Positions 2,963 to 57,455 of a DNA stretch of 57,522 bases are shown here, one piece after another; position 1 is the stretch's first letter; each line of letters begins with the position of its first letter. The notes beneath the pieces are model-generated. The model was given only the letters and a program-made list of their open reading frames with translations. It was not told the DNA's origin and made no database searches. Source of the stretch: a virus (Duplodnaviria; Caudoviricetes); IMG/VR virus record IMGVR_UViG_3300034075_000013, positions 1 to 57,522 of that record. One strand, 5' to 3'. The position numbers and the translations under genes are program-made.

Positions 2963-3408
2963 TGAGCAAGAGCCTTCCTTCGCGCGGCTTTGCTGCAATC
3001 GGCCTGCACCAGCCGAAGAACTCAATCAACGTCGGCTCTGTCCTGCGCGCGGCGCTGTGCTATGACGCCGCTCTCGTCGCCACAAGTGGACGGCGCTACA
3101 GCCGCGCCTCCACTGATACAACGAAGGCATATCGCCATATCCCGCTAGTTCAGGCAGAAAACCTGCGCTCAGCGGTGCCGTTCGATTGCGTGCCGGTCGC
3201 CGTTGACCTGATCGACGGAGCCCGCCCGCTGCAAGGCTATATCCACCCGGAACGCGCGTTCTACGTGTTCGGGCCGGAAGACGGAACGCTCGGCAAGGAA
3301 ATCCTCGGCTGGTGCCGGGATGTGATCTACGTCCCGACGCGCTTTTGCATGAACCTCGCCGCCACGGTCAACGTGGTGCTCTATGACCGACTTGTGAAAA
3401 GGGACTAA
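2962..3408 (+). CDS. SpoU/TrmH-family (SPOUT) RNA 2'-O-methyltransferase
   Basis: Motifs PKNSINVGSVLRAA, VFGPEDG, CMNLAATVNVVLYDR. Confidence 0.85.
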   Translation: MSKSLPSRGFAAIGLHQPKNSINVGSVLRAALCYDAALVATSGRRYSRASTDTTKAYRHIPLVQAENLRSAVPFDCVPVAVDLIDGARPLQGYIHPERAFYVFGPEDGTLGKEILGWCRDVIYVPTRFCMNLAATVNVVLYDRLVKRD

Positions 3409-41359: not shown

Positions 41360-41507
41360 TTGGAGCCTTTCGCTGTCCCCGCAGGGACATTCCGGCTAAA
41401 GGATCGCCATCCATCCGGGCCGGGGCCAGGTAGCGGCGACTTGGGCTGAGTGCCCTTGTTTGGTTAGGGCATTGCCTCGTAAGGCGACGCGCCCAAGCTT
41501 TCGATGG

Positions 41508-41678
41508 TCAGCAAGTGACCTTGTTGTAGTCGGGAATCGGGTTATGCACCCACTGAGGCGGCCACTGGCGGGGCCAATCCACTTGATGAACCGCGACACT
41601 GCGTGGTGCCGCCTCTAGCTTGGCTAGCCGCTCACGAAGTTCGTTCACTTCCTTGCGTAGTTGCTCTAGCTCGGTCAT
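41508..41678 (-). CDS. Small coiled-coil protein (56 aa)
   Basis: MTELEQLRKEVNELRERLAKLEAAP... Confidence 0.55.
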   Translation of the reverse strand: MTELEQLRKEVNELRERLAKLEAAPRSVAVHQVDWPRQWPPQWVHNPIPDYNKVTC

Positions 41679-41680
41679 GG

Positions 41681-41923
41681 TCACTTGCCGTCCGGCCGCT
41701 TGTCCAAACCGCGCTCCGCGAGCAAGGCCGCCAAGTCGTCAACGTGCAGGCAGTCCACCATGCAGGCATAGCTGTTTGGCGCCTGAATGGGCGCGATATA
41801 GCCATTGCAATAGTCGTTCCCCGGTGTGGCGCTGTGCAGCACGCCATAGGCCACAACATCACCGCCGTTCAGCATGACAATCTTGTCGCCGTTGTGTGCC
41901 TCGCGGCCGTTCCTGTAGTGCAT
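41681..41923 (-). CDS. Hypothetical protein
   Basis: AAAGG RBS; MHYRNGREAHNGD... Confidence 0.7.
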   Translation of the reverse strand: MHYRNGREAHNGDKIVMLNGGDVVAYGVLHSATPGNDYCNGYIAPIQAPNSYACMVDCLHVDDLAALLAERGLDKRPDGK

Positions 41924-41948
41924 GGTTTACCTTTCGGTTGGTTGTGTC

Positions 41949-42022
41949 TGGCGTCCGCAGCGGGGCTCTCACCCGCATTCCGCCCCTTTTGTGATGAGCG
42001 GTCCTGGTTGGATGATGCGGAC
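41949..42022 (-). tRNA. tRNA-like RNA with 10-nt anticodon loop
   Basis: GTCCGCA/TGCGGAC acceptor plus GCCA; T arm GCGGG-TGAGAGC-CCCGC. Confidence 0.6.
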
Positions 42023-42103
42023 AGGGATTAGGTGACTAAGCCAGCCATGCCTCATACACCGGACTAATGGCCTGCTTGTGACTGGGATATGAGCTAGAAC
42101 GAC

Positions 42104-42126
42104 AAAGCCCGCGCTTGGCGGGCCTT
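42104..42126 (-). terminator. Terminator-like hairpin after the tRNA cluster
   Basis: GGCCCGC-CAAGC-GCGGGCTTT. Confidence 0.55.
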
Positions 42127-42134
42127 GGGGGTGT

Positions 42135-42210
42135 TGGTTGCGGACCCCGGTATCGCGCCGGGTATCTTCGGGTTATGAGCCCAACGGGTTAACTTTCTCC
42201 CTCGTCCGCT
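42135..42210 (-). tRNA. tRNA-Met(CAU), initiator-like, atypical D/T loops
   Basis: 1:72 mismatch, GGG/CCC anticodon stem, CTCATAA loop, ACCA end. Confidence 0.8.
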
Positions 42211-42215
42211 GTATC

Positions 42216-42657
42216 TGTCGCCCCATGCACGGAATCGAACCTGCGACCTACCGCTTACGCGACGAGTCGCCGGAATAGTCTACCGCTGCCCTTGTTCTTC
42301 GCTTTGTAGGTCGGCGTCTGCGCACGGCAGTTCGGGCAAATCACGCGCAGGTTAGGGCGGGTGTTGTTCTTGTGGTCGCCATCGATGTGGTCAAGCTCCA
42401 ATGGGATTGACGAGCCTCGCCATTCGGCAAGCTCACAAATCCAACAAAACCACCCGCGCTCGCCAATGAGAATCTTCCGGCGAGTGGCGTCGGTCTTGGC
42501 GTTATCCAGATCGGCAACGACATGAAGATGGCGCCCTGCGGCAATGCAGCCGGGGCAATACTTCGTCGCTCCGTTCCGGCCAAGCCATTCGCCACAGTCG
42601 CAAAACCTGGATCGTCTGTTCATTAAGGCGGGTGCTCTGCCACTGAGCTAAAGGGGC
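42216..42657 (-). tRNA. tRNA-Thr(UGU) interrupted in the anticodon by a 366-nt HNH insert (halves 42625-42657 and 42216-42258)
   Basis: 5' half GCCCCTTTAGCTCAGTGGCAGAGCACCCGCCTT plus 3' half GTAAGCGGTAGGTCGCAGGTTCGATTCC... rejoin as loop CTTGTAA. Confidence 0.85.
42255..42623 (-). CDS. HNH endonuclease inside tRNA-Thr
   Basis: CWIC...LELDHIDGDHKNNTRPNLRVICPNC. Confidence 0.88.
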   Translation of the reverse strand: MNRRSRFCDCGEWLGRNGATKYCPGCIAAGRHLHVVADLDNAKTDATRRKILIGERGWFCWICELAEWRGSSIPLELDHIDGDHKNNTRPNLRVICPNCRAQTPTYKAKNKGSGRLFRRLVA

Positions 42658-42662
42658 GTATC

Positions 42663-42739
42663 TGGCTCCAGGGGCTGGGATCGAACCAGCGACCACCTGC
42701 TTAACAGGCAGGCGCTACTACCAACTGAGCTACCCCGGA
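42663..42739 (-). tRNA. tRNA-Asn(GUU)
   Basis: Canonical cloverleaf, CTGTTAA loop, GGTTCGATCCC T arm, GCCA end. Confidence 0.92.
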
Positions 42740-42744
42740 ATGTC

Positions 42745-42816
42745 TGGTGGACCACTTCGGTATCGAACCGAACAAGGATGGCTTGCAGGGCCTTCCTGCG
42801 CCCCTGCGCGCAGCCC
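42745..42816 (-). tRNA. Atypical tRNA (Ala UGC-like, G3:U70)
   Basis: GGGCTGC/GTGGTCC acceptor plus ACCA, T arm TTCGG-TTCGATA-CCGAA, minimal D arm, extended anticodon stem. Confidence 0.6.
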
Positions 42817-42822
42817 GTTATC

Positions 42823-43400
42823 GTTTTTGCCCTGCCTGCCGGTCGCTACCCGGCACCAGCTTTTGCGTGTCCGCTCGCGCATTCCTGCGGCTGGCCGCTT
42901 CGTCGGGGCTTCTTGGCTGGGCAAACGGCTGACGGCTTCCCTCTCTCTGGAGGGTAGCGCGGCGGCTAGTCACTTCCGCCCCGCCGACCGAGCTGACTAG
43001 GCCCGGCAAGCCATCATGCGTTTGCCGCCTCACCGACTGAGGCGAAATAGTTTTGCTCTGCTGGCCCCGGACTAGATGGCGTCTCCCAACGGGCTGCTTT
43101 CAACGCCGCAGACAGAGCAAAGGTTCCTGCGACTGGGTTTGCCTGCTACACAGATGCTTAGCGGCGGTCTCCGTTCCAGCCGTCCCAATCGCAGAACCTT
43201 TACCCTCTCACAAACCGTCGGCGCGCACTTGTCCTTCTAGCGGCTTCCGGCACTCACAACAAGCACCGCGACAGTTCTGATTTTCCTCGCCGGTCTTTCT
43301 CCGGGCTGGGGATTGCGGTCCCGTTTTCTAGAGGCACCTATCCCACGAAGGGTGGCGCCGTGTTGTTGTGCCGAGAACACCTCGGCTTTGTAGGCTCCAG
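42823..43400 (-). ncRNA. Putative large multi-domain structured ncRNA or string of small RNAs
   Basis: ~580 nt without a credible ORF; serial long-range helices. Confidence 0.5.
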
Positions 43401-43402
43401 CC

Positions 43403-43432
43403 TTTTTACCACAGGCTGATCCAGTATGTCAA
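43403..43432 (-). promoter_or_regulatory. Possible sigma70 promoter for the RNA tract
   Basis: Perfect TTGACA, 18-nt spacer, weak TGnTAAAAA -10. Confidence 0.35.
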
Positions 43433-43629
43433 GCGCCGTTCGTCGGTTTTTTGCGGTATTTTTTCACCGCAATGCGAAGGCCAGCGGACAGGTTCCCTTC
43501 CCCGATCCCGCTGGCCTTTTCTACCGTCTCGTCATCCAACATCACGTTGACTCGCCTCATGGGCTCGTCGTTGATGGGAGGTCGGCCCGGCTTACTCCCC
43601 TTGCTTCTCGAACTCTTGGAGGTAGTCAA
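43429..43629 (-). CDS. Small ribbon-helix-helix DNA-binding protein
   Basis: GRPP...RRVNVMLDDETVEKA...NLSAGLR. Confidence 0.6.
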   Translation of the reverse strand: MTTSKSSRSKGSKPGRPPINDEPMRRVNVMLDDETVEKASGIGEGNLSAGLRIAVKKYRKKPTNGA

Positions 43630-44905
43630 TGCACGCCTCCGACCAGCCGTCGATATGGTTCCACTGGCCGTAGCCTACGCCATTCTTGTATGCGGCCACG
43701 TTGATGACGTAGCCTGCGCCATTCGGGGACGGTGCGCGGTCGGCGCTCTGTTCGTCGGTCAGGACAACCAGCCGGCCATAGGCGCGCTCGCGGTTGATGG
43801 CTTCCACGGCCTTACCGAGATACGTCCCGCCGTGCTGCTGGCTCTTGTCGATGGCATCCCGCAGGGCAAAGCCACGACGCGGCGGCACCTGAACGACGGC
43901 ATTGGAAAACGTGAACACCTCGACCGACTCGCACAACTCGCGCAGCAGGATAGCCACTCCGCAGGCCGCATCCAGCCGCGTGATGTCCGACTTGCCGGAC
44001 ACGGCTGAATTCATGGAGCCCGACACATCCAGCAGGACGGCGGTCTTGCCGGACAGCTTTTCTCGGCCCTCGCAGGCGCGCAGCATCATCGGCTCCAGAA
44101 TGTGTTCCCAAGCCGGGACGGCGCGGGCGGCAGCAATGAACCGGAACGGCAGAACACGGGCGATATCGACCGCCGAGGCGTAACCGACAACCAAATCCTC
44201 CGACACCCCAGCCTCGCGCATGTTCCGCAGGTTGCGCAGAAACGCCAGCGCCCCGAGCTGGCCCTCAGACATCAGGCGCTCGAACGTCGCCTTTTTGTCA
44301 GCACCACCAGACAAGGCAACCTCCCACGTATCCGGGGTCTGGAGCTTGCCGTCGATCAGGCGCTTCCACAGCGCGTCCTGTTCGGCGTCTTTCGGCTTGG
44401 CGTGGCACAGGAACAGCACGTCGCGCAGCTTCACCGCTCCGTCGCGGTTGTACTTGGCAAGCGCGTACTCCCCGAACTTGCCGAAGGCGGCGGCAAGGCC
44501 GGTCTTGACCTGCTTGGACAGCGGTTTCTTGCCGTCCTGCCAGTAGATCGCCACGAACTCCGCCAATTCGTCGGCGCGCTGGATCACGTCCGGCAGAAGT
44601 TTCCCCACCAACAGGCGATGCTCCGGCAGGCGAGCCATTTCCCGCGCCAGCAGCATCGGGGCGTGGCGCAGTTTCATCTTGGTACGCGCCTCGAACGCGC
44701 AGGCGGCGACGAACTCCGGGCGGCACTTCGGCACCAGCGCCTTGATACGATCCTCGATGGATGCGCCGGACTCGTAGAAGTTCGATTCCCAAAGCAAGCA
44801 TGCGGCGACGGTACGGCGAAGCTCCTGCTCCGGCGTGATGCGGGCCGCAACTGCGCCCTCCGCAGTGACCGGAGCCGGGTACTTGATCGCCAGATTGGTT
44901 CGCAT
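43592..44905 (-). CDS. rsr: Ro60/TROVE-domain RNA-binding protein (Rsr) with vWA domain
   Basis: IQRADELAEF, FGEYALAKY, LRDVLFLCHAKP, TWEVALS, LRNLRN, LPFRFIAA, MIDAS DVSGSM, LTDEQ. Confidence 0.93.
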   Translation of the reverse strand: MRTNLAIKYPAPVTAEGAVAARITPEQELRRTVAACLLWESNFYESGASIEDRIKALVPKCRPEFVAACAFEARTKMKLRHAPMLLAREMARLPEHRLLVGKLLPDVIQRADELAEFVAIYWQDGKKPLSKQVKTGLAAAFGKFGEYALAKYNRDGAVKLRDVLFLCHAKPKDAEQDALWKRLIDGKLQTPDTWEVALSGGADKKATFERLMSEGQLGALAFLRNLRNMREAGVSEDLVVGYASAVDIARVLPFRFIAAARAVPAWEHILEPMMLRACEGREKLSGKTAVLLDVSGSMNSAVSGKSDITRLDAACGVAILLRELCESVEVFTFSNAVVQVPPRRGFALRDAIDKSQQHGGTYLGKAVEAINRERAYGRLVVLTDEQSADRAPSPNGAGYVINVAAYKNGVGYGQWNHIDGWSEACIDYLQEFEKQGE

Positions 44906-44921: not shown

Positions 44922-45058
44922 TTGCGGGTAACAGACGACGGCGGTCAAACCCTTGCGGGCCATTGCCCTACCAGTTGGGCGACCTGAGTACCTTGCGGCG
45001 CTCAGGACCGGACTCGAACCGGTAACACATGAAGTAACCGCTACCTACAACACCGCAA
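44922..45058 (-). ncRNA. yrlA: Y RNA (YrlA-type, permuted tRNA-like domain), copy 4
   Basis: T arm ACCGG-TTCGAGT-CCGGT, GCAA-capped acceptor-like stem, D arm GCCC-AACTGGTA-GGGC, closing stem; adjacent to rsr. Confidence 0.85.
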
Positions 45059-56684: not shown

Positions 56685-57455
56685 GTGAAAGTCGAAATCA
56701 AACACTGCTGGACCGGTAACACGCTCTACACGGCAGACGTCCCTGACAACACGCCCAGCGGCATGCAAATGCGCGCGGCATTGGAGCAGGCGACGCAAGC
56801 GCGCGCCAACCTCGCGCGCGCCAACCTCGCGGGAGCCAACCTCGCGCGCGCCAACCTCGCGCGCGCCAACCTCGCGGGAGCCTACCTCGCGGGAGCCGAC
56901 CTCGCGGGAGCCTACCTCGCGGGAGCCGACCTCGCGGGAGCCGACCTCGCGGGAGCCGACCTCGCGGGAGCCTACCTCGCGGGAGCCAACCTCGCGCGCG
57001 CCAACCTCGCGGGAGCCAACCTCGCGGGAGCCAACCTCGCGCGCGCCAACCTCGCGCGCGCCGACCTCGCGGGAGCCGACCTCGCGGGAGCCTACCTCGC
57101 GGGAGCCGACCTCGCGGGAGCCAAGGACGCAGACCTTGTCATCGCACAGACCCGCATCCTGCCCGAAGGCGATTTGATCGGCTGGAAGAAGTGCAACGCC
57201 GGCGTGCTTGTGAAACTGCGCATTCCCGCTGACGCCAAGCGCTCTCACGCCTTCGGCCGCAAGTGCCGCGCGCAGTTCGTTGATGTGCTGGAAGTGATCG
57301 GCGGCGAACTAGGAATCACCGACACGCACGGACCGCGCACGGAGTACCGGGTCGGCCAGCGCGTCACGCCGAACTCGTTTGACGAGAACTGGCAAGACGA
57401 GTGCAGCAACGGGGTTCATTTCTTCATCACCCGTGAAGAAGCGCACGCGTGGTAG
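56685..57455 (+). CDS. Pentapeptide-repeat protein with C-terminal DUF5758-like domain
   Basis: 21 A(N/D/Y)LA(R/G) repeats; IGWKK...RKCRA...ECSNGVHFFITREEA. Confidence 0.85.
   Translation: MKVEIKHCWTGNTLYTADVPDNTPSGMQMRAALEQATQARANLARANLAGANLARANLARANLAGAYLAGADLAGAYLAGADLAGADLAGADLAGAYLAGANLARANLAGANLAGANLARANLARADLAGADLAGAYLAGADLAGAKDADLVIAQTRILPEGDLIGWKKCNAGVLVKLRIPADAKRSHAFGRKCRAQFVDVLEVIGGELGITDTHGPRTEYRVGQRVTPNSFDENWQDECSNGVHFFITREEAHAW
56805..57119 (+). repeat. 21 x 15-bp tandem repeat GCC(A/G/T)ACCTCGCG(CGC/GGA)
   Basis: Direct reading of the sequence. Confidence 0.95.

Follow-up and report, generated by a model that had tools for sequence, protein, structure and literature searches.

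The tailed-phage record IMGVR_UViG_3300034075_000013 carries a gene for tRNA-Thr(UGU) that is interrupted within its anticodon loop by an open reading frame (ORF) for an HNH endonuclease. The window analysed here is the entire virus record, 57,522 nt. The insertion is real and polymorphic, with filled and empty alleles among close relatives. We think that it is probably a homing endonuclease gene of the free-standing HNH type which, without an intron, has lodged in the anticodon loop of tRNA-Thr(UGU), takes tRNA-Thr(UGU) DNA as its target and leaves a dead tRNA behind.

The tRNA gene lies on the minus strand and is split between U34 and G35 (Table 1). The 5' half is followed by a single extra base, A at 42624, and then by the ATG of the ORF at 42623..42621. 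At the other border, G35 completes the last codon as its third base and U36-A37-A38 supplies the TAA stop, the last 4 nt of the ORF belonging to the tRNA 3' half. Coding sequence therefore accounts for 365 of the 366 bases of the insert, which has neither untranslated regions nor a stop codon of its own. Direct reading of the minus strand and removal of the insert in silico thus bear out the preliminary description of this DNA, which had placed an HNH gene exactly in the anticodon of tRNA-Thr(UGU) and had described the insert as an ORF plus one base with its stop borrowed from the 3' half.

The rebuilt tRNA is irregular. It has a U6:U67 non-pair, a T-stem with an extra base or a non-pair, and GACA in place of NCCA, all of which the preliminary description had listed as slight decay of the 3' half; a C27:U43 non-pair comes in addition. 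These features may reflect decay or may predate the insertion. It retains G1-C72, C2-G71, G35 and U36, and its acceptor strands pair at 6 of 7 positions. The GACA end resembles GCCA with one change. When the rebuilt tRNA body was compared with the tRNAs of 78 loci (427 calls, reduced to the distinct ones), 18 of its 40 top matches were tRNA-Thr(tgt) of other phages, and the anticodon stem-loop is common to several of them. A reading of the 3' end of the ORF as a decayed second tRNA 5' half was rejected, the right-justified comparison by eye giving 9 matches in 33.

In the intact window, ARAGORN calls tRNA-Asn only, and its intron option at the default threshold still does not call the split gene in place. 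Removal of 42259-42624 in silico yields a 76-nt tRNA-Thr(tgt) that ARAGORN accepts at the default threshold, with the CTTGTAA loop anticipated in the preliminary description. A tRNA was obtained with 27 of the 88 junction combinations tried, and exact 366-nt removals gave Thr(UGU), Thr(CGU), Ile(UAU) or Leu(UAA), depending on the placement of the cut. As a chance control, a 366-nt deletion was made at 57,036 positions of the window. A tRNA spanning the joint arose only at 8 consecutive positions, 42254-42261, and no false split tRNA at the 57,028 others. The split tRNA is not due to chance, because 366-nt deletions rebuild a tRNA only at this locus.

Metagenome contigs from four public runs (X2, X3, X4 and X5) were placed on window positions 41400-43600, and they contain both alleles. 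Runs X5-X24 contained small shares of the sampled words only, and among them X5 alone was used. A 1,037-nt contig of X5 (record 27) matches 42625-42931 with 8 differences, a flank about 97% identical, and joins 42625 straight to 42258, thereby skipping the 366 nt; its last 32 letters lie beyond the joint. The joint is the uninterrupted CTT-GTAA loop of tRNA-Thr(UGU) in a related phage, exactly as predicted. Because the joint in the empty-site contig is unambiguous, the insertion point is fixed between U34 and G35. No target duplication or repeat is present at the insert borders (both 0). The filled allele was found in X2 record 7 and in X3/X4 records 14 and 15, from two other studies, where both junctions are crossed with 0 differences. 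Since contigs from three other runs cross both junctions unchanged, the arrangement is not an assembly artefact.

The insert does not contain a detectable ribozyme. No Rfam group I or group II intron family matched at E<=10, either in a 5-kb search or in a 521-nt search around the insert, and with all but one of its bases coding it offers no room for such a ribozyme, as had been stated earlier. Folding of the entire 442-nt RNA is only marginally more stable than that of shuffled sequence (z-score -1.67), and its minimum-energy structure pairs the first 5 bases with the 3' end. Five homolog loci that were scanned (L003, L080, L081, L084 and L085) were likewise without a group I match. No bulge-helix-bulge could be drawn by inspection at the junctions, although no formal search for this motif was made. 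The junction, whose position is fixed by the empty allele, lies at 34/35 and not at the 37/38 of protein-spliced introns, and RtcB is absent from the virus record. At 42603-42712 there is also a weak match to YrlA (21.6 bits; gathering score 69), which was dropped because two adjoining tRNA-like units explain it.

The predicted protein matches phrog_10822 (2.4e-22) and phrog_14736 (3.2e-19), both annotated as HNH endonuclease, and Pfam HNH_3 at 16.5 bits, below the cut-off of 24.8. A profile built from 34 relatives (alignment A1) matches the ScoMcrA HNH domain with an E of 0.0024. A Cys cluster at the N-terminus precedes an HNH core with CxxC...CxxC, in which the zinc cysteines C60, C63, C96 and C99 are invariant in the alignment. 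His79 and Asn91 of the H-N-H motif are present; the last position is Arg100, so the complete signature is lacking. This column holds H in 30, D in 3 and R in 1 of the 34 aligned sequences, and in 103 motif instances from 169 proteins the residue is H in 100 and R, D and N in 1 each. The Arg codon is likewise found in the identical X3 and X4 contigs. The last His of H-N-H is a catalytic metal ligand in this fold, and the enzyme is possibly impaired because Arg100 replaces this metal-binding His. A confident AlphaFold2 (AF2) model has a predicted local distance difference test score (pLDDT) of 86, with 94-97 in the core. A Foldseek search against the PDB gave no hit at E<=0.001, and the weak top hits (9n6b, 5zmm, 3fc3, 5mkw and 3ldy) were mostly HNH nucleases. 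The record holds one copy of the HNH gene, whose G+C content at third codon positions is 0.68, compared with 0.73-0.82 in nine phage genes.

Homologs of the nuclease are tied to tRNA genes, and above all to tRNA-Thr(UGU). The family comprises 4,317 cluster representatives at E<=1e-10. We inspected 155 homolog loci (74 from IMG/VR, 80 from metagenomes and 1 from a metagenome-assembled genome), which represent 98 distinct sequences. The flanks contain tRNA genes in 92 of the 98 distinct loci. The HNH gene adjoins a tRNA-Thr(tgt) gene in 60 of them and an opposite-strand tRNA-Ile(tat) in 20, the CTTATAA loop of the latter being different by one base; 11 loci are without an adjoining tRNA. In at least one case (L004), an adjoining tRNA-Thr with the CTTGTAA loop was miscalled as Tyr by ARAGORN. 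Where the HNH gene lies just upstream of a tRNA-Thr(tgt) on the same strand, the stop codon of the ORF falls within that tRNA gene at 22 of 35 loci, and at 2 of these 22 it is U36-A37-A38, as in the window.

Individual loci show further arrangements. In L007, the HNH homolog is flanked by an intact tRNA-Thr(tgt) on one side and its decayed duplicate on the other (2717-2791 and 3220-3295), and a TAG at the anticodon position of the duplicate serves as the stop of the ORF. A hairpin, GTAGACC...GGTCTAC, is situated just before the HNH start in L005 (2831-2850), L006 and L009 (about 2810-2841) and holds the likely ribosome-binding purines. It recalls the hairpins described at the start sites of T4 homing endonuclease genes.

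A second split tRNA was found in L003, a 48.7-kb IMG/VR contig from an unrelated phage whose flanks have nothing else in common with the window. Here a tRNA-Thr-type 5' part through the D-arm is followed by 7 nt and by a homolog of 124 codons (51% identity), which stops at a TAA leading into the tRNA 3' part. The tRNA parts have a perfect T-arm, acceptor strands that pair at 7 of 7 positions and an ACCA end. Excision in L003 cannot rebuild a tRNA, because the 5' strand of the anticodon stem is missing. The closest protein (P0002, 55-60% identity), which comes from a 47.7-kb Logan contig, is predicted to carry an N-terminal extension whose sequence looks like a tRNA 5' half in translation; the resemblance stops near the anticodon, immediately ahead of the Met-Asn start.

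A more complex case was seen in L085, where outer tRNA fragments (958-980 and 1882-1938; acceptor 7/7) enclose a tRNA-Thr-like gene (1021-1092, 37.8 bits) together with a 203-aa HNH homolog. The mobile unit may sometimes include a copy of tRNA-Thr. The intron mode of ARAGORN applied to the homolog loci at -ps85 returned 438 intron calls, mostly noise. An orphan T-arm in L091 was rejected as a split tRNA, since it appears to be part of a full, odd tRNA.

We propose the following course of events. The HNH gene would have been copied into the anticodon loop between U34 and G35 without a surrounding intron. The enzyme, or a recent ancestor of it, would cut intact tRNA-Thr(UGU) DNA at or near the anticodon stem-loop, and recombinational repair from a filled donor would then copy the ORF in, with the conserved tRNA halves acting as homology arms. 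Among the proteins encoded by the phage are a Sak4-like annealing protein and an exonuclease. Insertion would destroy the target and thereby shield the carrier against the enzyme that it encodes. The split tRNA has most likely lost its function, which would be tolerated because the host supplies tRNA-Thr. A common transcript would cover the ORF and the tRNA cluster, and tRNA processing would release the ORF from it, as has been suggested for T4 segB. The change from His to Arg at the last H-N-H position suggests that the nuclease itself is decaying, and a weakened or dead enzyme would correspond to the degeneration stage of the homing cycle.

The nearest known counterparts are T4 SegB, the nearest established model, and MobE of Aeromonas phage Aeh1. 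SegB and the T5 F-TflI/II endonuclease ORFs resemble the gene described here in that a free-standing-type nuclease gene is located in a phage tRNA cluster. SegB is a homing endonuclease encoded in a tRNA cluster and co-transcribed with the tRNAs that recognises tRNA T-psi-C DNA (PMC2330249). Like the family ORFs here, segB ends against the next tRNA, and its product targets tRNA gene DNA, namely a T-psi-C stem-loop motif (PMC2330249). However, SegB is a GIY-YIG enzyme encoded between genes, whereas the window enzyme is of the HNH type, sits inside the tRNA gene that it disrupts and has a target deduced from gene position. MobE is an HNH homing endonuclease whose gene splits nrdA without an intron or intein (PMC3045599); like the present gene, it is inserted in a host gene. 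The difference is that the split nrdA encodes protein pieces that reassemble into an active enzyme, whereas the window gene splits a tRNA. To our knowledge, there is no way in which a tRNA cut within its anticodon could function.

Two kinds of tRNA intron also invite comparison. Group I introns of the bacterial tRNA anticodon loop are present in some lineages and absent in others, and some of them carry homing endonuclease genes. The window insert shares with them the position in the anticodon loop and the variability among lineages, but they possess a self-splicing ribozyme, none of which is detectable in the window. Protein-spliced and split tRNAs of archaea and eukaryotes resemble it in having a ribozyme-free intervening sequence in the anticodon region. 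Their introns are located mostly one nucleotide 3' of the anticodon and need a splicing endonuclease and a ligase (PMC4090602). The window differs from these in its 34/35 site, in showing no evident bulge-helix-bulge and in being a tailed phage with bacterial-type tRNAs. No account of a nuclease gene that lies, without an intron, in the anticodon loop of a phage tRNA turned up in the open-access literature searched; in one paper the anticodon loop is mentioned only as an attB border (PMC3706429). What is new is a probable homing gene of a phage tRNA cluster that is intragenic, lies in the anticodon loop and lacks an intron; the kind of gene was already known.

At the level of sequence, the presence/absence polymorphism and the occupation of the same kind of site in the unrelated phage of L003 are features expected of a homing gene. 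The earlier proposal of an intron-less homing element directed at tRNA anticodon DNA is supported by the empty allele, the adjacency to tRNA-Thr in 60 of 98 loci, L003 and the lack of a detectable ribozyme; the cleavage specificity is an inference. Several observations weigh against our interpretation. Most homologs lie beside an intact tRNA-Thr and not inside it, so the usual target may be at the edge of the tRNA gene and insertion into the anticodon loop an exception, and the target specificity of the family is deduced from gene position only. In about 100 distinct loci, two detectors found 2 clean split cases, the window and L003, besides the complex L085. The empty site is represented by a single contig from one run that ends 32 nt past the joint. 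No clear Shine-Dalgarno sequence precedes the HNH start codon. The window nuclease may be impaired or inactive through Arg100 and perhaps unable to home now. Finally, the acceptor, D and T arms of L003 are intact although the tRNA cannot be rebuilt, which could reflect a recent insertion or retention of the tRNA parts for a function of their own.

The latter idea deserves some consideration, and we give it a small but real chance. The tRNA halves would be kept as working parts, the acceptor/T-arm bracket recruiting RNase P and 3' processing and thereby defining, stabilising or throttling the nuclease mRNA. The acceptor strands still pair (6/7 in the window, 7/7 in L003), the ends meet in the 442-nt minimum-energy fold, and the family ORFs routinely overlap the next tRNA (22/35). 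Moreover, it has been proposed that tRNA-Arg maturation cleaves the segB transcript exactly where the stop codon of segB lies (PMC2330249). However, all filled alleles seen are identical, so that there is no covariation to read, and a recent insertion explains the intact halves equally well. Such a role in cis can be compatible with a homing gene. It is unlikely, on the other hand, that a one-off illegitimate recombination or rearrangement dropped the HNH gene into the tRNA gene without site specificity or homing. The scarcity of clean cases (2 in about 100 distinct loci), the lack of a target duplication or border repeat and the apparently damaged active site would fit such an event. Yet the same layout recurs in the unrelated phage of L003, again in a tRNA-Thr-type gene and again with a TAA stop that runs into the 3' part; the N-terminal extension of P0002 resembles the translation of a tRNA 5' half up to about the anticodon; and the family is strongly tied to tRNA-Thr(UGU).

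The preliminary description had also offered a protein-spliced tRNA sealed by an RtcB-type ligase, perhaps linked to the Ro/Y system, but we obtained no evidence in favour of either suggestion. In that case the ORF would be an intervening sequence removed from the pre-tRNA by proteins, namely an endonuclease, possibly the HNH protein itself, and a host RtcB-type ligase, with a working tRNA-Thr(UGU) as the product. This is very improbable. The insert does fall precisely inside the anticodon loop, ARAGORN accepts the tRNA obtained when it is removed, the arms of L003 are well preserved, and a Ro-like gene and a YrlA-like RNA occur in the same region; in Salmonella, such a gene and RNA are neighbours of rtcB. 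But the record has no RtcB, no bulge-helix-bulge could be drawn by inspection around the junctions, and excision in L003 cannot give a tRNA for want of the anticodon-stem 5' strand. The site is 34/35 and not the canonical 37/38 (PMC4090602). The rebuilt tRNA has 6:67 and 27:43 non-pairs and an irregular T-stem and is without CCA, genes related to the ORF are ordinary ones situated between other genes, and the uninterrupted allele is found at the DNA level. Upstream of the Ro-like gene lies a YrlA-like RNA of its own, which is not the split-tRNA element. Even more doubtful is ribozyme-free tRNA splicing in a bacterial virus in its full form, in which phage or host proteins excise the insert, an RtcB-type ligase reseals the halves and one transcript gives both the nuclease mRNA and a working tRNA-Thr(UGU). 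We attach least credence to a remnant of a group I intron that kept its internal homing gene and lost its ribozyme. The 5' exon ends in U; bacterial tRNA group I introns sit in the anticodon loop, and that of cyanobacterial tRNA-Leu(UAA) follows U34. However, 365 of the 366 nt are coding, Intron_gpI did not match at E<=10 even in the 521-nt search, the fold is not unusually stable, the five scanned homolog loci had no group I match and the homologs are intergenic.

The record has 62% G+C and a CheckV completeness estimate of 77%. It encodes a P22-like portal, a terminase, a major head protein and an integrase in addition to the Sak4-like annealing protein and the exonuclease mentioned above. 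A search with the portal protein found distant P22-like relatives only, and the DNA that GenBank phages have in common with the cluster region is limited to tRNA-Asn-like sequence. On the minus strand, from 45053 to 42139, the order is YrlA-like RNA, Ro-like gene, a gap of about 0.8 kb, tRNA-Ala-like element, tRNA-Asn, split tRNA-Thr and CAU-loop unit (Table 1).

Table 1. Features of the tRNA cluster region, listed in minus-strand order, with the basis of each assignment
Feature	Position	Strand	Basis and remarks
YrlA-like RNA	44936-45053	-	Rfam 37 bits vs gathering score 69; E 1.4e-6
Ro-like RNA-binding protein gene	43592-44905	-	phrog_850
Degenerate tRNA-Ala(UGC)-like element, good T-arm, ends ACCA	42745..42816	-	ARAGORN at lowered threshold -ps90 only; no Rfam match
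Intact tRNA-Asn(GUU), encoded CCA, directly upstream of split tRNA-Thr	42663..42739	-	ARAGORN; Rfam tRNA 60.7 bits
tRNA-Thr(UGU) 5' half, positions 1-34, 33 nt (acceptor 5' strand, D-arm, anticodon-stem 5' strand, C32 U33 U34)	42625..42657	-	Read directly; pairs with 3' half; joint 42625 fixed by empty-site contig
Insert, 366 nt (1 leader base + 365 nt of HNH ORF)	42259..42624	-	Exactly what one X5 contig skips
HNH endonuclease ORF, 122 aa + TAA	42255..42623	-	ORF list; phrog_10822
tRNA-Thr(UGU) 3' half (G35 U36 A37 A38, anticodon-stem 3' strand, variable loop AGGTC, irregular T-arm, acceptor 3' strand, GACA)	42216..42258	-	Read directly; pairs with 5' half
Weak tRNA-like element, CAU loop, non-canonical T-loop, directly downstream of split tRNA-Thr	42139..42209	-	Rfam tRNA 30.9 bits vs gathering 29; no ARAGORN call

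Three of the four tRNA-like units in the cluster are irregular. The spacer word GATAC, with CA before it, is common to the 3' sides of tRNA-Asn and the split tRNA-Thr (42658-42662 and 42211-42215, minus strand), and a G+C-rich hairpin is found near 42100-42125, after the CAU-loop unit. The YrlA-like Y RNA, which is below the gathering score, lies directly upstream of the Ro-like gene, and a YrlA-like match is likewise located upstream in four IMG/VR relatives of the Ro-like protein. The loci L075-L078, found via the Ro-like protein, were rejected as close relatives; the tRNA-Thr of L076 is unrelated in sequence. Searches for relatives with an exact 33-nt word of the 5' half in viral and genome collections, and with an exact 26-nt spacer word and a 24-nt upstream word, gave no match.

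Just downstream of the tRNA cluster lies an 80-aa ORF of very wide conservation (41681-41923, minus strand) without a PHROG match, relatives of which occur in 424 IMG/VR stretches. In the 80 of these that were kept, the relatives are 73-84% identical, and L172 is the only one of these 80 loci with DNA in common with the window (79%). Upstream of the 80-aa gene homolog, L172 contains a tRNA-shaped RNA (966-1083; Rfam tRNA 48.4 bits; no ARAGORN call) with complete acceptor, D and T arms, in which 56 nt replace the central 11 nt of the anticodon arm.

Homing endonuclease genes usually spare the host gene, in that they ride in an intron or intein or stay between genes. The gene described here is inside a structural RNA gene without the protection of an intron, and the uninterrupted allele remains in circulation. 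It seems that a homing gene can do without an intron if its target is dispensable. The finding suggests one route by which phage tRNA clusters erode and turn over, and standard tRNA finders miss such split genes. It also brings to light a large HNH family, of thousands of clusters, for which the genomic position suggests tRNA-Thr(UGU) DNA as the target. According to a recent report, host defence is evaded through amplification of phage tRNA loci by SegB (PMC13096335), which gives the nucleases of tRNA clusters wider interest and a possible link to defence. As tRNA sequences are conserved across unrelated phages, an element of this kind would find its cut site and homology arms in many genomes.

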